Source: a virus. From it: 6,260 nucleotides of DNA. Positions 1-6,260 of the stretch are shown here, in pieces. A program made the position numbers and the translations under genes. The stretch's first letter is position 1; every line of letters starts with the position of its first letter. A model generated the notes under the pieces. That model was not told where the DNA came from. It worked only from the letters and a program-made list of their open reading frames with translations, and made no database searches. Location of the stretch: positions 1 to 6,260 of the IMG/VR virus record IMGVR_UViG_3300045988_004286. One strand, given 5' to 3'.

Positions 1-99
1 CAGAACGGAAGAATCCAAAAGAATTCAACAATGAAGAAGTAGTATTACCAGGGTTTGAAGAAGCTCCATTCAAAGAAGTCAAAACGCCAGAAAAAAAAG
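1..99. repeat. Terminal redundancy, copy 1 (identical to 6162..6260); overlap of a circular contig
   Basis: Base-by-base comparison shows 1..99 (cagaacggaagaatcc...cgccagaaaaaaaag) equals 6162..6260 exactly. The capsid reading frame runs through the junction without interruption. Confidence 0.97.
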
Positions 100-460: not shown

Positions 461-492
461 AAAAAAATATTTAAAAATTAAACATCAGACTC

Positions 493-2184
493 TCAATAAG
501 AAAAAACGCCAGCTAAATCGTTAGCCCTCTTGTGTTTGACCTTATCTCGACATTTCATCAATGACGCAGCAGCCAAGCGACGAACAAGAGGGAGTTTTTC
601 ATAGGGTCTTTCCTTATCAAGAACAGTCCTATTATAACGAAAAGAATAGTTACGAAGCTCATATTCGACCAAGTCCTTATCATTAGAATCTTCCAGGGTT
701 TGGTAGAAATCTACAAGACGGTTATAGTCATAACGACTCCAAAAATCAACTATTTTCTTAGAGATGATGCGCAGGAACCTATCTCGTCCATAGAGTTCTC
801 CTCCAGGAGTGCCGCTGGACCAGAAGAGCTCCGAGCATCCGTCTGTTGAATATGTTCGAATAAATTTCGAAATTCCGAGGAAAAAGCGATAGACGCGGGA
901 GAGACGATGATTAATTTCCAAATCAACACCATCATACAAACGACATTCAGTAAGAATGAGAACATCGCTATGCGGTAAATCCTCCTTAGGAGAAAGTATA
1001 TTCCAATGTTCGTTTGATTTTCCATAATTATCTACATAATCTAAATACTGTTTACAAAAAGACAATATACTCTGTTTAGAGTCTACATTAAAAGGGTCGC
1101 AGTTCAAATCGGCACATCCGCTACGAATGACTCGTGCGGGCGCTGTGAACGCAGCAAAAAGTAGCTGGTAAACGTCCGATGAAGATTTACGAATAACGTC
1201 CGAAAATCGGGGGAATAATCGAAGGATATACGGCCAAGAAGGTTTAATTGTGCGAAACTTGCCATTGCGTTCAACGACGACTCCATCAAGGCACTTATTG
1301 GCAGCTTCATCAACTTCGGCAAGTCGTACCGTTCGAGGAAAGAGATTTGATTCTGTAAATCCAATGGAATGGAAGGACTTAGGTCGTACCACTTTTGGCA
1401 TCTGAGTATAAAAGTCGGGTAAAGCGACAAAACTGTTAAGATACGACGCAACATACAGTGCTGCGTATCCTCGCGAGAGTGACGTATCACAACGACCGTA
1501 AGACCAAGCCTTAGGTACATTTTCACAAATAGTTTCCGAGAATCGTTCGGAATTGGACAACAGTAACAAGTGCCAATGCGGGCGGAAACTGGTAGGGCCG
1601 TATTCTGATACAGCGTAGTAACGTAATTTTTCATCCGGGTAGTAACTTCTTAAACGTTTTAAAAATAAATCGAGGTCCCTATTACAAATATAAGGAATCC
1701 TATTCGGGACATTATGCTTAATCTTCTCAAGAAGAGAAAGCATATCCTTAGATTTCATAGGATAAGTAAACTTAACTTCGGGGTCCTTGAAGGTTCGCTC
1801 AACCGTAGAAGTTTTCAACTTAACAGAAGCAGTACGAGGAACGCTGCGAAAACCAAAAAGATAAGTATTAGGGTCATCAGCATCCAAGTCATTGATATCG
1901 GGTATACAGGATACATCAGCAATATCATCCGTACAAGTTTCAATAACCGAAACTTCCAAAGTAGGAAGGTAACAAGGAGCATAAGTAAGAGTAACAAAAT
2001 ATGCATAACGGAATTGAGCAGAATAAGTAGTAAGAAGGTTTGTCTGAATAGCAGAACGACGGAGAAGACAAGAGGGGCAAGAACCGCAAGGGACAACAAC
2101 GGATTCACCTGTATACTTGTTAACAACCGTACGAGGGTGCTGACAACGAGTCAACAACTTATTCTGCAATTCCTTAGTAATCAT
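493..2184 (-). CDS. VP4: Rolling-circle replication initiation protein (HUH endonuclease; VP4 / phiX A-like), 563 aa
   Basis: Motif I YFVTLTY, motif II HWHLLL (HUH) and motif III with paired tyrosines YVASY (compare phiX174 gpA YVAKY). N-terminal Cys cluster CGSCPSC as in gokusho/alpavirus VP4. ATG 2184..2182 overlaps the upstream stop (ATGA). A 32-nt AT-rich spacer separates it from the capsid ATG. Confidence 0.93.
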   Translation of the reverse strand: MITKELQNKLLTRCQHPRTVVNKYTGESVVVPCGSCPSCLLRRSAIQTNLLTTYSAQFRYAYFVTLTYAPCYLPTLEVSVIETCTDDIADVSCIPDINDLDADDPNTYLFGFRSVPRTASVKLKTSTVERTFKDPEVKFTYPMKSKDMLSLLEKIKHNVPNRIPYICNRDLDLFLKRLRSYYPDEKLRYYAVSEYGPTSFRPHWHLLLLSNSERFSETICENVPKAWSYGRCDTSLSRGYAALYVASYLNSFVALPDFYTQMPKVVRPKSFHSIGFTESNLFPRTVRLAEVDEAANKCLDGVVVERNGKFRTIKPSWPYILRLFPRFSDVIRKSSSDVYQLLFAAFTAPARVIRSGCADLNCDPFNVDSKQSILSFCKQYLDYVDNYGKSNEHWNILSPKEDLPHSDVLILTECRLYDGVDLEINHRLSRVYRFFLGISKFIRTYSTDGCSELFWSSGTPGGELYGRDRFLRIISKKIVDFWSRYDYNRLVDFYQTLEDSNDKDLVEYELRNYSFRYNRTVLDKERPYEKLPLVRRLAAASLMKCRDKVKHKRANDLAGVFSY

Positions 2185-2489
2185 TTTCTATCAGTAAAAT
2201 TAAGTTCCATCTGGCGAGGCTTACGACCACGAGCAAAAGAAACGTGAACAAATGTGCGATATTTTATGAGCTGGTCAAATTTAAAGGAAGAACCTTTAAT
2301 CCTAGAGATGAAGCCATCAACCGAAAGGTCGACAGGCTTTAAATCAATGGCATCACCGGTCAGATGCTGGGAAGTCCTAGAACCATTACATGCAATATTC
2401 TGTTCTTCAGTGCGAAAGGCAGAAGTAACAGTAAAATGAATGTTCTGACGGAGAAGCCATTCAACAAACTTCATTAAATCTGGATTCAT
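2181..2489 (-). CDS. Peptidase M15-type (LAS family, VanY/Peptidase_M15_3-like) zinc peptidoglycan peptidase, 102 aa; putative endolysin
   Basis: Translation contains SAFRTEEQN (SxxR..N block), H-x6-D (SQHLTGDAID) and a distal His (FVHVS). These are the three Zn ligands in the spacing typical of M15 D-Ala-D-Ala / L-Ala-D-Glu peptidases. No signal peptide is visible. T-ending codon bias matches the other genes. Confidence 0.8.
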   Translation of the reverse strand: MNPDLMKFVEWLLRQNIHFTVTSAFRTEEQNIACNGSRTSQHLTGDAIDLKPVDLSVDGFISRIKGSSFKFDQLIKYRTFVHVSFARGRKPRQMELNFTDRK

Positions 2490-2502
2490 AACTTACGATG
2501 AC

Positions 2503-2592
2503 TTACGAAAATATCTGAGCAATAGACGTAAGAAGACTAACAGCAGCTGCAATAACAGCAGCCCAAATCTTGGATTTAGTTTCATTTTTCAT
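2503..2592 (-). CDS. Small membrane peptide, 29 aa (MKNETKSKIWAAVIAAAVSLLTSIAQIFS); candidate holin-like or lysis-accessory protein
   Basis: Hand-translated ORF below the track length cutoff. ATG 2592..2590, TAA 2505..2503. It has a basic N-terminus followed by a 20-residue hydrophobic stretch. Codon choice (gct, gtt, att, ctt, tct) matches the phage genes. It ends 13 nt upstream of the M15 peptidase ATG and its start overlaps the preceding ORF by 11 nt. Confidence 0.5.
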   Translation of the reverse strand: MKNETKSKIWAAVIAAAVSLLTSIAQIFS

Positions 2593-2755
2593 CGGGAATA
2601 GCTTTAAAAGTTGAACAATTAGAAATGATGAGAACACAGTCCGGAGCTACGTAAGAAGTAACAAACGCGGAAATGTCCTCAACAGGGACAAGAATGGTCT
2701 CATTCTGGTTAGGGTTAGTCTTTGACTGAACAGAACACAAATAATACTTTTCCAT
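2582..2755 (-). CDS. Hypothetical protein, 57 aa (MEKYYLCSVQSKTNPNQNETILVPVEDISAFVTSYVAPDCVLIISNCSTFKAIPDEK)
   Basis: Hand-translated ORF below the track cutoff. ATG 2755..2753 is the first ATG after an in-frame TAA at 2770..2768; stop TGA at 2584..2582. Strong T-ending codon bias is like the other genes. It is the first ORF downstream of the promoter-like element. I recognise no motif in it. Confidence 0.6.
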   Translation of the reverse strand: MEKYYLCSVQSKTNPNQNETILVPVEDISAFVTSYVAPDCVLIISNCSTFKAIPDEK

Positions 2756-2797
2756 AAACTCAAAAATTTAAATTATACATTGATTTTAAAAACAACA

Positions 2798-2834
2798 CAA
2801 AGGTATAAATAAAATTTTGAGAGAACCAAACAAA
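2798..2834 (-). promoter_or_regulatory. Bacteroidetes-type promoter candidate: -33 TTTG (2830..2827; a second TTTG at 2834..2831), 21-nt spacer, -7 TACCTTTG (2805..2798)
   Basis: Minus-strand reading is caccgcTTTGTTTGgttctctcaaaattttatttaTACCTTTGtgttg. This matches the Bacteroides consensus TTTG-N19-21-TAnnTTTG. It sits in an AT-rich stretch about 43 nt upstream of the first ORF's ATG (2755). Confidence 0.45.
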
Positions 2835-3158
2835 GCGGTGTATTATTAACATAAATAAACGATAAGCTATGCGGGTGGCAGGCTGGTCTGTGAGTTTGCG
2901 CTATTTAGACAAGAGGAGACTGAAAGCTATGAGGTAAATAGCTTTCCCTTCGGGCAAACTCATGTAGGCTTCGCCAAAATATTTTTAGGGGTATAGCAGC
3001 GACGGGAGAAAGAGGCTCTCCGGGAGATTGCATACGCGTTGCAAGCATCAAGCTTCAAGGAAGGCAGTACTATAGCCTGGCGGCTCTGATTTCAGTCCTA
3101 ACGTCCCGAAATTCAGTAGGTGTATAACCACGCTACGCGCGGTGCCGGAAGTTACTCC
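2835..3158 (-). other. Non-coding, GC-enriched, hairpin-dense intergenic region; candidate complementary-strand origin (ssDNA initiation site) or structured RNA
   Basis: Stops occur in all three minus frames. GC is about 50% by hand count over 2881..3180, versus 37% in the one comparison line counted (1..60); most of the remaining sequence looks comparably AT-rich by eye. Perfect stems: 2891-2899/2954-2962 (9 bp) enclosing 2922-2930/2938-2946 (9 bp, 7-nt loop) and a mini-hairpin 2947-2953. Further stems: GGCGAAGCC mini-hairpin (viral strand, 2975..2967), palindrome AAAATATTTT 2976-2985, 3005-3009/3017-3021, 3028-3032/3040-3044, and 3086-3093/3108-3116 (8 bp plus a bulge) with a possible pseudoknot 3097-3100/3117-3120. 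Confidence 0.6.
2891..2962. repeat. Nested inverted repeats forming a three-way-junction-like fold
   Basis: tgagtttgc (2891-2899) is the exact reverse complement of gcaaactca (2954-2962). gaaagctat (2922-2930) is the exact reverse complement of atagctttc (2938-2946). Confidence 0.8.
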
Positions 3159-3197
3159 AAACAGCAAAACCCGACGCGTATCACTACGAGCCGGGTA
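3159..3197 (-). terminator. Intrinsic-terminator-like hairpin plus T-tract, about 22 nt downstream of the VP2 stop
   Basis: Minus-strand reading is ACCCGgCtCGTA-GTGA-TACGcGtCGGGT followed by TTTGCTGTTTGG. Outer stem is 3169-3173/3192-3196 (5 bp). Inner stem is 3177-3180/3185-3188 (4 bp) plus pair 3175/3190. The loop is a GNRA-type GUGA on the coding-sense strand, and a T-rich tail follows. Confidence 0.4.
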
Positions 3198-3218
3198 AAC
3201 ACACAACAAACAAAAGTA

Positions 3219-4280
3219 CTACCAGGGCAGAAAGTTTCCTATAGTATTACCGATAGAAGTACCATAATGAACAGCCTTATCAGCGTCATAATACTTGTAT
3301 TTCTTGCCTTCATTACGAGAACGATACCAGTCCTCAATGCTACGAGAACGGGCACGCTCGCGATTGAATTTAGCAGCTTCAAGCTCAAATTCAGCATTTG
3401 AATGATTAGCGGCATTAGAAGCACGAATCAAAGAATCAGCAGTAGATTCAGCGACCTTATTGCTAATTTTCTGACCTTTGGCACGGGCATAAGTCAATAC
3501 CTCATCAGCAAGAACTTTTTTGGCCTGGTTATAGTTCAAATGACCATGAGACATCTGATTATAATATTCAGAAGCCTTGACATTCAAATCAGCCTGCTGT
3601 TGCTGGTCAAGATACTTGTTAAGAACAGTCTTGGATTCAGCATCAAGCAACTGGGAGGTACCTTGTGCCTGGAGAAGACGTCCGGCAAAAGCCATATTAT
3701 CAAGTTCCTGCATTTCCTTGGAATAACCAAGCTGAGCACGAGCCAAACCGGTAGCCTTCAAGTAATCACGAGTTTCCTTAGTCATCTTGGACCAATCGAC
3801 ATTGGAGAGAGCCTGCATAGCCTGGGCATCCGCAAGGTTTTTCTGTCCTTGCAACTGTGAAACCTGGGCTTGCTGAACCTGGGACTGGAATACGGAACCG
3901 ATAGCTTGCTGAATGCCCGAAAAATCTGCCTGGAAAGGCTGCATGACAGCAGAACCGGCAGAAGAGGCAGAAGCACCGGGACCGACAGACTGGGCAACAC
4001 CGGCAGAACCACCGTTCATCATCAGATAAGGATTTAAACCGGCTTCTTCGAGACGTTGACGTTGCGCGGAGGCAGTATTATATGCATTTTCCTTATTCCA
4101 CATATTTTCCTGGAAATCGCGCTGCTGCATTGCCATACGCTCGTTAAACTGGTTGTTCATCTGATTTATCTTATAATTCATCTGGTTAGTCTCCTGGACA
4201 TTCTGTCTGTTCTGCGAGTTCTGAATAGCAGAAGAGCCAATGCCAAGAAGACCACCAGCGATAGAACCAAGAAGACCCAT
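3219..4280 (-). CDS. VP2: Minor capsid / DNA pilot protein (VP2 / phiX H-like), 353 aa
   Basis: Gly-rich hydrophobic N-terminus MGLLGSIAGGLLGIGSS. Long Gln/Asn/Ala-rich, coiled-coil-like body. The block FQENMW..NAYNTASAQRQRLEEAGLNPYLMM resembles the conserved FQE.M..TA.QR...AGLNP region I recall from microvirus VP2 proteins. ATG 4280..4278 overlaps the upstream TAA by 1 nt (TAATG). Confidence 0.82.
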   Translation of the reverse strand: MGLLGSIAGGLLGIGSSAIQNSQNRQNVQETNQMNYKINQMNNQFNERMAMQQRDFQENMWNKENAYNTASAQRQRLEEAGLNPYLMMNGGSAGVAQSVGPGASASSAGSAVMQPFQADFSGIQQAIGSVFQSQVQQAQVSQLQGQKNLADAQAMQALSNVDWSKMTKETRDYLKATGLARAQLGYSKEMQELDNMAFAGRLLQAQGTSQLLDAESKTVLNKYLDQQQQADLNVKASEYYNQMSHGHLNYNQAKKVLADEVLTYARAKGQKISNKVAESTADSLIRASNAANHSNAEFELEAAKFNRERARSRSIEDWYRSRNEGKKYKYYDADKAVHYGTSIGNTIGNFLPW

Positions 4281-4759
4281 TATTCAGAAGGAGCAGCTTC
4301 GGCGGAAGCAGCAGCCGCCTCTTCTTCTTGTTTAGAGATTTCAGCATCAATCAATTCCTGTGCCTGGGACTCAAGATTTTCAGCATAAGCCGACAATTCC
4401 TTAGACCAAGCGATAATCTCAGAAGGGGCCTGGACATGCCGAGAACGAACTACTGACAAAAGGTCATCATCAGACATCCTGTCCATAATCTGTTGAACCT
4501 GGGAAACAGACTGCTTACTTTGTCCAAACTTGGAGGCAACAGCAAAACCGGCACGGGAAGCCAAATCCTTGGTATGAAGAATCAGACGAACGTCAGAAGT
4601 GTAACGCACCGGACAATCTTCTTCATTATCATAAATTTCAACACGAAGCTGTTCGGTAGAATCAAATTCGGGAGCAACTGCAAAAGCATCCGGAACAACA
4701 TTAGGAGTAAGTCCGGAACCTTGTTCCAAACTATTCAAACTATTAAATTTTCCAATCAT
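4280..4759 (-). CDS. Acidic 159-aa protein; putative internal scaffolding protein (VP3-like), function uncertain
   Basis: ORF lies between the capsid and pilot genes, 14 nt after the capsid stop. It is Asp/Glu-rich with a C-terminal EEEAAAASAEAAPSE tail and has phage-typical codon bias. The function is assigned from position and acidity only, not from a recognised motif. Confidence 0.75.
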   Translation of the reverse strand: MIGKFNSLNSLEQGSGLTPNVVPDAFAVAPEFDSTEQLRVEIYDNEEDCPVRYTSDVRLILHTKDLASRAGFAVASKFGQSKQSVSQVQQIMDRMSDDDLLSVVRSRHVQAPSEIIAWSKELSAYAENLESQAQELIDAEISKQEEEAAAASAEAAPSE

Positions 4760-4773
4760 AACTAAAACGAAAT

Positions 4774-6260
4774 TTAGTAAGGTACACCATCACGAGACAA
4801 ATTACGGGCAACATAGCAACCGATATAAGAGTTAACCAACAATTGGTCAGTATCCCAAGCAGAAGTAGCCTTAACGCCAAAAATAGAATCAAGAACAGAA
4901 GGATTAACCTTGAAGAACTTGTAATTCAAGACAACTCTAGTGTCCTGGTCAACATTACCATCTTGATAACCAAAACCAAACCATCCGGAAAGGAGAGATT
5001 CAGTAACAGGAGAAACCCAAGATTTGAGAGTGGTAGTAAAGGCACCATTAACAACATCAAGCTTAGTTTTCCAATTGAAATAACGGGGATTATAACCTGC
5101 GTTAAACAGATTAACAATAGAAGCTTTCGGAGAATTGAAAATCTGCGTCATAGGAAGAACTTCCATGCCAATGTTATCAAATTCCGGAATAGGAAGGGAC
5201 TCAGCATCGGTAACAAGCAGCTGACCATCCTGTCCAGTAATTGTGTAATCAAGCAAAGGAACGGCATGATAGATGCACATAACGACACAATGTTCGTCAG
5301 TCGTATAAGTAAATGAACCGTTTCCTGTACCGACACCTTTACCGGCAATAACGGCAGTATCGTTTTCAGTAGAAAGGTTATTATTCACAACTTCACTAAT
5401 GTCGAGGTTACGGGAAATACCACCGATATAGGTACACATATTAGAAAGAGCTTGAGGCAAGTTCACACCAAAATGTTTACGAATCTGTTCGCGATAATCA
5501 GAATCACCGGACTGGCTGATTTCTTTCCAACGTTGAAGAGCCTCGGCTTGACGAAGGGCAAGAACAGTCATTTGAGAAGATATATCCTTAAGACTGACAT
5601 AAAGACTGGAATCTTTAGCAACAGTCTCACCAGTAGGAAGATGAACAGAAATAGGAGAACTATTTGCAGCAGAAGACAACGCAGTAGCAACGTCAACAGA
5701 GCGAGAATTGCCAGAAGCATCAGAAACAAAAACACCAGGAGTAGAATTACCCAAATCAATAACAGCAACATCACCAAACTGGGAGTTCGGAAGAACACCC
5801 ATCAACATGTCCTTGTTCCAATTACAATATCTGAGGTCAAACATTGTATCGGATTTCCAATAATCGGAACCGGAAGAAGGAAGAGAAGAAATCAGAGAAG
5901 GAGAAATACCAGAAAAATAGTCAACATTGTAAGAAGAAGGATTAGCATTCTCCCACTGAGACCATCGGAAAAAATCCTGGTAAATTTTCTGATACGCTAA
6001 AATAGGGAAAAGATTCACAACGGTATTTTGAATGTATTGCTGAGTATAGTTCGACGATGGATTACTAAGAACTACAGTTGACCACCAACGAGAACCTTTA
6101 TCAGGAGCTTCCTTTACAAAATTACCATAACCAAGATAACTCAACAACTTAAAAGACAAATCAGAACGGAAGAATCCAAAAGAATTCAACAATGAAGAAG
6201 TAGTATTACCAGGGTTTGAAGAAGCTCCATTCAAAGAAGTCAAAACGCCAGAAAAAAAAG
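4774..6260 (-). CDS. VP1: Major capsid protein (VP1/F-like), 3' part. 6162..6260 duplicates 1..99. Stop TAA at 4776..4774.
   Basis: Track ORF 4774..6243. Its listed 'M' is an internal TTG (Leu) codon, and the frame stays open to the window end. Capsid-like blocks include LRQAEALQRWKE, YREQIRKHFGV and YIGG. Strong T-ending codon bias is shared with the other minus-strand genes. Confidence 0.93.
   Translation of the reverse strand, partial: FFSGVLTSLNGASSNPGNTTSSLLNSFGFFRSDLSFKLLSYLGYGNFVKEAPDKGSRWWSTVVLSNPSSNYTQQYIQNTVVNLFPILAYQKIYQDFFRWSQWENANPSSYNVDYFSGISPSLISSLPSSGSDYWKSDTMFDLRYCNWNKDMLMGVLPNSQFGDVAVIDLGNSTPGVFVSDASGNSRSVDVATALSSAANSSPISVHLPTGETVAKDSSLYVSLKDISSQMTVLALRQAEALQRWKEISQSGDSDYREQIRKHFGVNLPQALSNMCTYIGGISRNLDISEVVNNNLSTENDTAVIAGKGVGTGNGSFTYTTDEHCVVMCIYHAVPLLDYTITGQDGQLLVTDAESLPIPEFDNIGMEVLPMTQIFNSPKASIVNLFNAGYNPRYFNWKTKLDVVNGAFTTTLKSWVSPVTESLLSGWFGFGYQDGNVDQDTRVVLNYKFFKVNPSVLDSIFGVKATSAWDTDQLLVNSYIGCYVARNLSRDGVPY
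6162..6260. repeat. Terminal redundancy, copy 2 (identical to 1..99)
   Basis: Same comparison as copy 1. Non-redundant genome is 1..6161. Confidence 0.97.

Follow-up and report, generated by a model that had tools for sequence, protein, structure and literature searches.

A strongly conserved 29-residue predicted membrane peptide encoded beside Rep and an M15 peptidase in gut microviruses: a candidate lysis effector

The window analysed here, the whole 6,260-nt stretch of virus DNA, is a complete circular microvirus genome of 6161 nt followed by a 99-nt terminal repeat. A first-pass annotation, made from the letters of the window, had drawn attention to a 29-aa ORF with a basic N-terminus and one hydrophobic helix that ends 13 nt before the gene of a 102-aa M15-type zinc peptidase lacking a signal sequence, which in turn overlaps Rep by ATGA. 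Reinspection of the sequence and profile searches confirm every element of this arrangement (Table 1), and the interpretation then offered, taken up below, is partly supported. The ORFs form a coupled chain in the order 57-aa ORF, peptide, peptidase and Rep. The acidic 57-aa ORF, with which the chain begins, overlaps the start of the peptide gene by its final 11 nt (GATGAAAAATGA). Pfam and PHROG searches with its product gave zero matches; every relative examined, mar62/63, phiHBP1 and Dulem 245/263 among them, has a homologue of it 5′ of the peptide and/or peptidase gene. An Rfam scan of the window returned a single spurious, sub-threshold match (mir-86), and the DNA fold of the GC-richer non-coding core is not significant (z = -0.9).

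Table 1. Genes and sequence features of the peptide-peptidase-Rep region, with positions in the window
Feature	Position (nt)	Strand	Basis
Acidic ORF, 57 aa, pI 4.4	2582..2755	-	ORF call
Predicted membrane-peptide gene, 29 aa	2592..2503 (ATG 2592..2590, stop 2505..2503)	-	ORF call, conservation and pN/pS
Peptide, basic N-terminus, residues 1-8		-	Hydrophobicity
Peptide, predicted TM helix, residues 9-29	2568..2506	-	Hydrophobicity
Spacer, peptide stop to peptidase ATG, 13 nt	2490..2502	-	Junction comparison
Peptidase_M15_3 (LAS-type Zn peptidase), 102 aa	2489..2181	-	Pfam and PHROG matches, invariant columns
Peptidase, conserved R26	2414..2412	-	Invariant column
Peptidase, candidate Zn ligand H42	2366..2364	-	Invariant column
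Peptidase, candidate Zn ligand D49	2345..2343	-	Invariant column
Peptidase, candidate Zn ligand H82	2246..2244	-	Invariant column
ATGA overlap, peptidase stop and Rep start	2184..2181	-	Sequence
Rep/VP4 replication initiator, 563 aa	493..2184	-	Pfam REP_ORF2-G2P and phrog_942

The peptide, MKNETKSKIWAAVIAAAVSLLTSIAQIFS, starts at an internal ATG of a 44-aa ORF that itself begins with GTG. Relatives were sought with this 44-aa form, with back-translated DNA patterns and with tblastn. The peptide is present in ~180 related IMG/VR contigs that fall into two sequence clades, ~60 contigs in clade 1 and at least 119 in clade 2. The pN/pS values of the peptide frame (Nei-Gojobori) are 0.096 (54 unique sequences) and 0.135 (106 unique sequences), as against 1.2-5.2 for the other two frames of the same DNA and 0.28 and 0.33 for the peptidase. 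Nucleotide diversities at codon positions 1, 2 and 3 are 0.043, 0.013 and 0.166 in one set and 0.097, 0.038 and 0.290 in the other, with the third position 4-13 times as diverse as positions 1 and 2. Within each clade the peptide is the most conserved protein, with identities of 95% and 90% compared with 60-82% for Rep, pilot, scaffold and peptidase; between the clades identity is 35% for the peptide, 28% for Rep, 31% for the pilot and 48% for the peptidase. The 29-aa ORF is a genuine gene under strong purifying selection. It could be dismissed as a chance ORF, an artefact of an overlapping ORF in a second frame (frame B) or a conserved DNA or RNA element, given that it has just 29 codons, is skipped by gene callers in most records and shares its DNA with a second frame that is also open in relatives. 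This reading is refuted by the codon-level selection tests and is scarcely credible; homologous peptides are, in addition, encoded by different DNA at the same position in several clades. The frame-B ORF itself (2585..2493, MKLNPRFGLLLLQ...), although open in relatives, mostly has a GTG rather than an ATG start, accumulates radical substitutions and has a pN/pS >1; it is evidently an off-frame shadow of the real peptide gene. One clade-1 contig, L017, has a frameshifted peptide ORF. The gene is almost never annotated, being represented in 21 database clusters compared with 1601 for the neighbouring peptidase.

Residues 1 to 8 of the peptide have a net charge of +2 and are followed by one hydrophobic helix (residues 9/10-28/29), so that the peptide has a predicted transmembrane domain, as holins do. 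The best 19-residue segment, residues 10-28, has a mean Kyte-Doolittle value of 1.92 and a Wimley-White octanol dG of -5.6 kcal/mol; this hydrophobicity is moderate, resembling that of TisB and far lower than that of the phiX174 E transmembrane domain. A stripe of small and polar residues runs along the helix at equivalent positions in both clades (S11/A15/V18/T22/Q26/S29 in one and K8/G12/S15/G19/N23/G26 in the other). Holin families have a hydrophilic, highly charged C-terminal domain, whereas the C-terminus of the peptide (...SIAQIFS) has, as in all variants, zero charged residues past K8. Searches against described holin families gave no Pfam match and a non-significant E-value of 0.083 for phrog_443, and there is zero significant similarity in Pfam or PHROG to Sgl families, including E. 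In size and type the peptide nevertheless conforms to an Sgl, being small, non-enzymatic, equipped with a transmembrane domain and encoded by a phage of the small ssDNA/ssRNA kind. J-type peptides are very basic, with many Arg and Lys residues, and neutralise packaged DNA; a phiX174 J-like, DNA-binding role was rejected on charge, as the net value is only +2 and ~20 of the 29 residues are hydrophobic.

As judged from profiles and conserved residues, the 102-aa protein is a genuine member of the M15_3 family and a putative muralytic enzyme. It matches Pfam Peptidase_M15_3 (PF08291; E = 3.7e-11, 43.5 bits with a cut-off of 23.2) and PHROG 894 (phrog_894, 'endolysin'; E = 9.5e-16). R26, H42, D49 and H82 are invariant across both clades, supplying the H-x6-D pair, the C-terminal His and the Arg of S-x-x-R, and PDB profile matches to the T5 endolysin and the 1lbu Zn DD-peptidase extend over the S-x-H...D motif, with S-Q-H...G-D-A-I-D of the peptidase aligned to S-K-H...G-D-A-I-D and S-R-H...A-A-D, respectively. 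The N-terminus is not hydrophobic (maximum KD(15) of 0.39 in the first 30 residues) and has neither a signal nor a SAR segment. The Pfam match covers positions 42-108 of 108, with ~40 N-terminal positions absent; cellular and phiHBP1 homologues have 134-178 aa and match profile positions 2-96. Conservation of the short form in >1600 protein clusters argues for a functional peptidase. An AF2 model has modest confidence (pLDDT 74, pTM 0.68), and with this model a Foldseek search of the PDB returned no match at E <= 0.001, 1lbu ranking fourth (TM 0.51, E = 0.13).

Microviral M15_3 peptidases are already known (Roux et al. 2012, PMC3394797; Kirchberger et al. 2022, PMC9239249), as the first-pass annotation had noted, and GenBank relatives with ~84% nucleotide identity already carry a 'peptidase' annotation for this gene. 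The gut Microviridae genes of those two studies share with the gene in the window the PF08291 match, a proposed horizontal acquisition as endolysin, the link to Bacteroidetes and the gut, and a position adjacent to VP4/Rep; the peptidase in the window differs in being a minimal form and otherwise adds nothing new. The small membrane ORF is in neither paper. By the authors' own statement, the analysis in PMC9239249 leaves out overprinted genes. A membrane partner is likewise unreported in the microvirus literature found.

The peptide gene adjoins the peptidase gene in the window and in ~170 contigs. The usual junction is TCG-TAA-GTY-ATG, with a 3-nt spacer (53 of 60 clade-1 contigs), to which the 13 nt in the window add a 10-nt tandem duplication of TCGTAAGTYA; in 105 clade-2 contigs the two genes overlap by ATGA. 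A signal-anchored peptidase, arising through readthrough of the stop codon or through a fusion, was considered and rejected as a general mechanism because many junctions are out of frame: the usual 3-nt spacer is in frame, whereas the ATGA of clade 2, the 13 nt in the window and spacers of 16 and 32 nt in other contigs are not. The expectation that relatives would have a small transmembrane ORF directly 5′ of the peptidase is borne out, with a conserved frame, by ~170 contigs, but mar63 and phiHBP1 have no such ORF and in pig-gut microviruses a similar 29-aa peptide is encoded just 3′ of the peptidase. In a pair of pig-gut genomes cited in PMC9239249, otherwise very divergent, raised nucleotide identity covers both the peptide and the peptidase gene, a pattern that identifies them as a single recombined module, apparently transferred jointly. 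A related organization is present in Bacteroidales prophage-like loci, where a homologous, full-length peptidase gene has a weakly holin-like gene for a protein with four TM segments directly 5′ and genes for TM proteins or lipoproteins 3′; in tailed phages, homologues of the peptidase are annotated as endolysins. A small transmembrane ORF 3′ of the peptidase in Dulem 264/248 was given no weight because it is conserved only among near-identical records.

The peptide and peptidase genes are separable. Nine near-isogenic contigs retain the peptide and, by six-frame HMM search and gene inventory, have neither the peptidase nor any other muralytic gene. Two of the nine are complete circles that encode only MCP, scaffold, pilot, a ~64-aa ORF, the peptide and Rep. 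Comparison with a peptidase-bearing neighbour shows a clean ~306-nt indel, with flanks >90% identical, and the peptidase-less genomes are nested within clade 2 in a Rep tree. In a rat microvirus and the rodent microviruses examined, a related peptide is encoded directly 5′ of Rep with no peptidase, and Rep lies directly 3′ of the peptide in relatives without the enzyme. Conversely, mar63 and the isolated, plaque-forming phiHBP1 have the peptidase and no peptide; a search for relatives of mar63 that would form a peptide-less clade returned clade-1 contigs only. A pattern search of IMG/VR for the 32-aa variant gave zero matches. By these comparisons, the usual place of the peptide gene is normally between a ~60-aa acidic ORF and Rep, and the peptide appears to be a core, ancestral gene of a large gut microvirus lineage.

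This distribution bears directly on the proposal, made with the first-pass annotation, that the peptide is a dedicated export partner of the peptidase. Were it a dedicated holin, existing only to export the M15 endolysin, the two genes would constitute a cassette acquired or evolved together. Its upstream position, the translational coupling, the absence of a signal sequence from the peptidase and the weakly holin-like gene in the same position in the Bacteroidales prophage cassettes are all in keeping with such a role. Nevertheless, at least nine IMG/VR contigs, together with the rat and rodent records examined, have the peptide and lack the peptidase, mar63 and phiHBP1 show the converse, and the peptide lacks both a charged tail at its C-terminus and a match to any holin family. 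From one clade to the other the peptide has diverged much as the core genes have, whereas the peptidase is more conserved, which suggests separate histories. A dedicated partnership is therefore contradicted, above all because peptidase-less genomes, complete ones included, retain the peptide, and we regard it as highly improbable. The alternative offered with the first-pass annotation, a peptide that is lytic by itself, agrees better with the distribution.

Lysis outside the phiX174 group is an acknowledged gap: microviruses that do not belong to it carry no lysis gene of the E type (PMC7062461), and those without a peptidase 'may rely on ... unidentified lysis genes' (PMC11499846). In the complete genomes without a peptidase, the peptide is the only predicted membrane protein. 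In the reading that we consider best, and hold with about even confidence, an ancestral single-pass membrane peptide is the primary lysis effector and the peptidase a facultative endolysin inserted beside it. The sequences show that the gene is real, how strongly it is selected, its synteny, its separability from the peptidase gene, and the family and metal-binding motif of the peptidase; how the peptide sits in the membrane, the lesion, the lytic role and the passage of the peptidase through that lesion are inferred, as follows. The peptide would span the inner membrane once through a helix of ~20 residues with one small/polar face, its short basic N-terminus cytoplasmic by the positive-inside rule and no domain in the periplasm. 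It would oligomerise in the cytoplasmic membrane to form a lesion, either holin-like or similar to that of the C-terminal part of MS2 L, a 25-residue peptide of which is reported to dissipate the pmf. In genomes with no muralytic enzyme, this lesion alone would suffice to trigger lysis. Where present, the M15_3 peptidase, presumably of Bacteroidales-phage origin, would have been inserted directly 3′ of the peptide and coupled to it translationally, by the 3-nt spacer or by ATGA, and, being signal-less, would gain access to the murein by way of the lesion that the peptide makes. More broadly, and a little less confidently than even, we propose that the family of 27-32-aa peptides may act as the primary lysis protein so far missing for a major group of microviruses of the gut, a new class of effector acting alone or with an M15 peptidase in a minimal, two-gene 'holin-endolysin' system.

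Several observations count against a role in lysis. The peptide has zero significant similarity to holin or Sgl families. Lysis proteins tend to evolve fast, so that very strong conservation is unusual for them and could point rather to a specific protein target or to a function other than lysis. The frameshift in L017, the ~40 N-terminal positions missing from the peptidase and the fold search without a significant match weigh on the same side. With mar63 and phiHBP1 lacking the peptide, a microviral M15 peptidase apparently works without it or with another factor, and the adjacency of the two genes may reflect the pilot-to-Rep interval being the sole site that tolerates accessory genes. The genome that carries the module has no spanin equivalent for the outer membrane, and we know of no precedent for a single 20-residue helix without a soluble domain serving as a large-hole holin that releases a 12-kDa enzyme.

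In one alternative, the peptide would be a 'protein antibiotic' of the Sgl type, its helix blocking a membrane enzyme of the host lipid II pathway so that lysis follows from failed septal wall synthesis, with the peptidase a secondary helper once the envelope fails. Sgl systems by definition have no muralytic enzyme, and retention of the peptide in genomes devoid of one is the defining Sgl situation; the peptide is the sole candidate lysis gene in the nine peptidase-less relatives but not in the window, where the M15 peptidase is also encoded. Near-invariance within clades and a small-residue face of the packing type accord with a helix-helix interface specific to a conserved target, the size is close to that of the 37-aa Sgl-M, and Sgl candidates are recognised by a transmembrane domain in a small phage genome. 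We still consider this mechanism unlikely: it leaves unexplained why a signal-less cytoplasmic peptidase is repeatedly placed beside, and coupled to, the peptide, as an enzyme freed only after lysis gains little, the peptide has zero homology to E or other Sgls and, unlike most Sgl genes, its gene is not overprinted.

Alternatively, the peptide could be a membrane peptide with no part in lysis, functioning in superinfection exclusion, as a modulator of burst size like phiX174 K, or as a Rep-linked tether in replication or assembly, with lysis being brought about by the peptidase where present and otherwise by another or a moonlighting protein, as with Qbeta A2. The invariant neighbour of the peptide is Rep, not the peptidase, its conservation is much above that usual for lysis genes, and the plaques formed by phiHBP1 and the genome of mar63, both without the peptide, indicate that it is dispensable in some backgrounds. 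On the other hand, in the complete peptidase-less genomes the peptide is the only obvious candidate for lysis; independent insertions of the peptidase gene immediately flank the peptide on either side, the pig-gut genes move as a module, and a lytic genome of 6 kb can accommodate few accessory genes. Such a role is, on balance, rather unlikely.

As the preferred reading would have it, the peptide is a lysis effector with partial likenesses to several known systems. The phiX174 E protein is a 91-aa inhibitor of MraY, and Sgl-M/LysM, with 37 aa, inhibits MurJ. Like E and Sgl-M, the peptide is small, essentially one transmembrane helix and the product of a tiny ssDNA phage, and in several relatives it is the sole plausible lysis gene; unlike them, it has only 27-32 aa, no soluble domain, a position of its own and no sequence similarity, and the window also encodes a putative muralytic enzyme. 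The order membrane protein, then signal-less M15 endolysin, in close coupling is shared with the cassettes of tailed phages and Bacteroidales prophage-like loci. The prophage-like protein, however, has four TM segments, 157-170 aa and a weak match to Phage_holin_4_1, compared with one TM segment and 29 aa for the microviral peptide, which in contrast to the tailed-phage cassettes has no accompanying spanin genes and no charged tail and also occurs without an endolysin. In size class, moderately hydrophobic helix and polar/small face, the peptide resembles TisB (29 aa), a pore-forming type I toxin that dissipates the pmf, and the 25 residues at the C-terminus of MS2 L. It is homologous to neither and is not encoded in a toxin-antitoxin locus, and the TisB helix has internal charges whereas that of the peptide has none.

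The host of the lineage is probably a member of the Bacteroidales, mainly because the cellular homologues of the peptidase are in Bacteroidales and there is a distant kinship to the B. fragilis phage phiHBP1. A record designated 'Bacteroides congonensis' is a 6.26-kb microvirus contig within a GCA assembly and, for that reason, is weak evidence of a host.

Microviruses outside the phiX174 group are among the most abundant phages of mammalian guts, and the peptidase alone is not the whole answer to their lysis because it carries no signal for export and close relatives do without it. The peptide is a concrete and cheap candidate, a 90-nt gene with a fixed position beside Rep and the peptidase. 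Should it prove lytic, it would represent a minimal lysis effector of a new type and among the smallest known, below the size of Sgl-M, could point to a target in the Bacteroidales envelope or serve as a tool for controlled lysis of these bacteria, and would exemplify a single-gene lysis system upgraded to two components via horizontal transfer. Whatever its function, the gene that these genomes conserve most strongly is one that standard annotation mostly overlooks. Near-isogenic phages, some with the M15 enzyme and some lacking it, already occur in nature.

The window, which has a 99-nt terminal repeat, represents a complete microvirus genome, a circle of 6161 nt whose genes are all encoded on the minus strand. 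The capsid ORF, cut by linearisation, is listed as a 489-aa ORF with a TTG start; 615-618 aa are annotated in relatives. The first-pass annotation had described a 29-aa membrane-peptide ORF and a 102-aa M15 peptidase ahead of Rep, and all its statements on the sequence were correct. The 29-mer, MKNETKSKIWAAVIAAAVSLLTSIAQIFS, has an N-terminus of net +2 and a single hydrophobic helix; 13 nt lie between its stop and the 102-aa ORF, which shows no hydrophobic N-terminus, in keeping with the claimed lack of a signal sequence, and is joined to Rep by an ATGA overlap. The stop of the 57-aa ORF sits 11 nt inside the start of the 29-mer and, because of these junctions, the 57-aa ORF, peptide, peptidase and Rep form a single coupled chain.

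Features of the window, and homologues of its 57-aa ORF in other loci
Locus	Feature	Coordinates	Strand	Remark
Window	major capsid protein gene	4774-6243 and 1-99	-	spans window ends
Window	scaffold	4759..4280	-	
Window	pilot	4280..3219	-	
Window	non-coding stretch	2756-3218		463 nt; after pilot, before 57-aa ORF
Window	57-aa ORF	2755..2582	-	
Window	29-aa ORF (peptide)	2592..2503	-	
Window	102-aa ORF (peptidase)	2489..2181	-	
Window	Rep	2184..493	-	
L326	57-aa ORF homologue	4577-4753		
L350	57-aa ORF homologue	490-654	-	phiHBP1
L351	57-aa ORF homologue	4384-4566		
L352	57-aa ORF homologue	4501-4665		

It is nearly certain that the small ORF genuinely encodes a membrane peptide. In GenBank relatives it is intact within an unannotated 82-nt gap, and IMG/VR loci, first collected via the peptidase, fall into two clades. 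In clade 1, which includes the window (peptidase 70-92% identical), the peptide reads MK[SN]ETKSKIW[SA]A[IV]IAAAVSLLTSIAQIFS and its stop is usually 3 nt 5′ of the peptidase ATG; in clade 2 (peptidase ~50% identical) it reads MKSNNIWKI[VI]IGAVSAALGY[IV]LNAIGL, with an ATGA overlap at the peptidase start. Nucleotide diversity of the peptide at codon positions 1, 2 and 3 is 0.043, 0.013 and 0.166 in one clade and 0.097, 0.038 and 0.290 in the other. The peptide frame has pN/pS values of 0.096 and 0.135 and the peptidase 0.28 and 0.33; the values of 1.2-5.2 in the other two frames mark frame B, a competing ORF on the same DNA, as an off-frame shadow of the 29-mer. Within clades the peptide is the most conserved protein (mean identity 95% and 90%; 60-82% for Rep, pilot, scaffold and peptidase), and between clades it diverges as core genes do (35%, vs 28% for Rep and 31% for pilot). 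Such unusually strong conservation would suit a peptide that inhibits a lipid II enzyme in the manner of E or Sgl-M, a main rival reading that we consider unlikely. Databases barely contain the peptide, with 21 clusters that all bear the name 'hypothetical protein [Microvirus sp.]', and gene callers left it uncalled in four contigs encoding a closely related peptidase (P0069, 88% identical).

In one clade 1 contig (L017, IMGVR_UViG_3300045988_021117) a small duplication (…cttcttatcttctta…) shifts the peptide ORF into the off-frame; if this is not an error of sequencing or assembly, it is a natural knockout. The spacer from peptide stop to peptidase ATG (2490-2502) grows by tandem CGTAA-containing units, as also at the L020, L025 and L028 junctions; in the window TCGTAAGTYA is duplicated (10 nt), and 2-4 units are present in other contigs. 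The spacer looks like a slippage hot-spot, adding stop codons and altering the frame relation.

The 102-aa ORF is a real M15 peptidase, matching Peptidase_M15_3 (E 3.7e-11, over the curated cut-off) and PHROG endolysin family 894 (E 9.5e-16), with R26 and the candidate Zn ligands H42, D49 and H82 invariant in relatives down to 47% identity. Its S-x-H...D motif aligns with the phage T5 L-alanyl-D-glutamate endolysin and a Streptomyces Zn DD-peptidase. The window enzyme is a minimal form, covering profile positions 42-108 only, and cellular homologues (134-178 aa) span 2-96; its AlphaFold model is moderate (pLDDT 74) and a fold search gave no clear assignment. Microviral peptidases are already known: those of gut alpa- and gokushoviruses were proposed to be horizontally acquired endolysins (Roux et al. 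2012, PMC3394797), and M15_3 peptidases are listed among lysis-associated accessory genes (Kirchberger et al. 2022, PMC9239249). GenBank relatives with ~84% nucleotide identity to the window have a 'peptidase' annotated, and the family comprises 1601 protein clusters in metagenomes. Its nearest cellular homologues (35-42% identity) are nearly all from Bacteroidales MAGs. The 37.7-kb contig L349 (IMGVR_UViG_2061766007_000374), of tailed-phage-genome size, encodes at 1501-1743 a peptidase sharing 44% identity with that of mar63 and may represent a closer donor lineage for the microviral enzyme. In bajarodmic viruses 550 and 388 (L148 1198-1740, L149 1204-1740) the peptidase frame, its start codon uncertain, runs upstream through a hydrophobic segment that could be a fused N-terminal signal-anchor or SAR-like domain, an alternative export solution.

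When back-translated cores of the peptide, rather than the peptidase, served as queries against IMG/VR, a peptidase lay directly 3′ of the peptide in 60/60 clade 1 contigs and was present in 110 of 120 clade 2 hits, one other hit being spurious. Nine contigs of 5.4-6.2 kb encode the peptide but no peptidase in any frame, two of them complete circles with only MCP, scaffold, pilot, a ~64-aa ORF, peptide and Rep. Relative to a neighbour with flanks >90% identical, the ~306-nt peptidase gene is cleanly replaced by ~52 nt, and these genomes nest inside clade 2 in a Rep tree; the simplest history is that the peptidase was lost or exchanged and the peptide kept. More distant records agree: a rat microvirus has MATAEKKNKIWSAIISAIVSLLTSLGTILVGQ one nucleotide upstream of Rep, and eight rodent records have a peptide, MSEKSS[KR]NWS..LKVIIAVASAIAGALGYS[QC]F, that in the two records examined ends 8-25 nt before Rep with no intervening peptidase. 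Conversely, the mar63 peptidase abuts a 58-aa ORF and the peptide gene, present in the sister mar62, is missing; in phiHBP1, an isolated, plaque-forming Bacteroides fragilis phage, the peptidase is full-length (134 aa) and comes after a 54-aa ORF, with no small TM ORF. We regard it as near certain that the peptide is a core, probably ancestral gene and not an accessory of the peptidase. As each occurs without the other, the dedicated holin of the proposed cassette is excluded; the part that stands is that the peptide may well act as a membrane component when the peptidase is present. That phiHBP1 manages without the peptide, and the invariant neighbourhood of the peptide with Rep, would favour a membrane role outside lysis, such as exclusion or a replication tether, which we hold to be improbable.

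Several observations, among them the Bacteroidales origin of the nearest cellular homologues, nonetheless argue that peptide and peptidase are functionally linked. Peptidases adjoin either side of the peptide gene, depending on lineage, and can travel with it, because in 13 pig-gut microvirus records a similar 29-aa peptide (MTKE[QK][LF][NT][KR]I[SV]N..CALISA...) lies directly 3′ of a full-length peptidase and directly 5′ of Rep, and because the 70-80% nucleotide identity of MG945328/MG945336, cited as recombinant for a ~700-nt peptidase region (Kirchberger et al., PMC9239249), spans both peptidase and small ORF, vs 32-47% upstream. Adjacency must be read with caution, since these genomes may tolerate extra genes nowhere but in the pilot-to-Rep interval. 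Tailed-phage homologues of the peptidase carry endolysin annotation. In three Bacteroidales prophage-like loci the peptidase lies between a 5′ gene for a protein with four TM segments, weakly matching Phage_holin_4_1 and phrog_199, and 3′ genes for TM proteins or lipoproteins, as in a classic lysis cassette.

On one face of its helix the peptide carries, in both clades alike, a stripe of small or polar residues at matching positions; the opposite face is bulky (Ile/Leu/Trp/Phe), no charged residue occurs beyond the N-terminal segment, and hydrophobicity is moderate, similar to TisB and far under the phiX174 E TMD. This pattern suggests that the peptide crosses the membrane once, with its N-terminus inside, and packs against helices of its own copies or of a target. 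The mechanism we prefer, at about even confidence, is a lysis peptide forming a membrane lesion that would alone be enough for lysis and through which the signal-less peptidase would also reach the murein; such a lesion would explain why acquiring and coupling a cytoplasmic peptidase was worthwhile. The lysis gene of non-phiX microviruses is stated to be missing or unidentified (PMC7062461; PMC11499846), and in the literature found neither a membrane partner nor a small TM candidate for lysis is described for them. As an annotated entity the peptide family is new; should it prove lytic, it would count as a new variant, very small in size, of the Sgl or holin type.

The 57-aa ORF of the window (MEKYYLCSVQSK...CVLIISNC...) is acidic (pI 4.4) and has no match in Pfam or PHROG. 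All relatives examined carry a member of its family (54-70 aa), whether or not they have the peptide or the peptidase. In close relatives it lies directly 5′ of the peptide and/or peptidase; in Dulem virus 245 it comes after a TM ORF and in phiHBP1 after Rep. The non-coding stretch, the sole long one in the window, presumably holds promoter or origin functions; its core (2860-3190) is richer in G+C (0.505) than the genome as a whole (0.416), Rfam gave no match for the stretch, and its predicted DNA structure is not significant (z = -0.9). Its clade 2 equivalent holds a recurring 41-48-aa ORF starting MERSDFL (L053 2893-3018; L258). An Rfam mir-86 match at 3600-3674, inside the pilot gene and far below the family threshold, is spurious. 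Two more distant relatives, Dulem viruses 263 (L352 4658-4849) and 245 (L351 4175-4372), encode in the pilot-to-Rep interval, between a ~54-aa ORF and Rep and before a ~60-aa ORF, respectively, proteins of 63-65 aa in which a basic N-terminus and a TM segment lead to a lipobox-like ...VQ[AS]C and a Ser/Thr/Asn-rich tail. They have no family match and may be lipoproteins; they may also be related to the peptide as longer homologues, or be analogous to it in function. The distant relative bajarodmic virus 1133 (L353) has, directly after pilot, a 56-aa ORF (3802-3972) with two predicted TM segments, recalling class II holins in size and TM count, and a 104-aa ORF after Rep.
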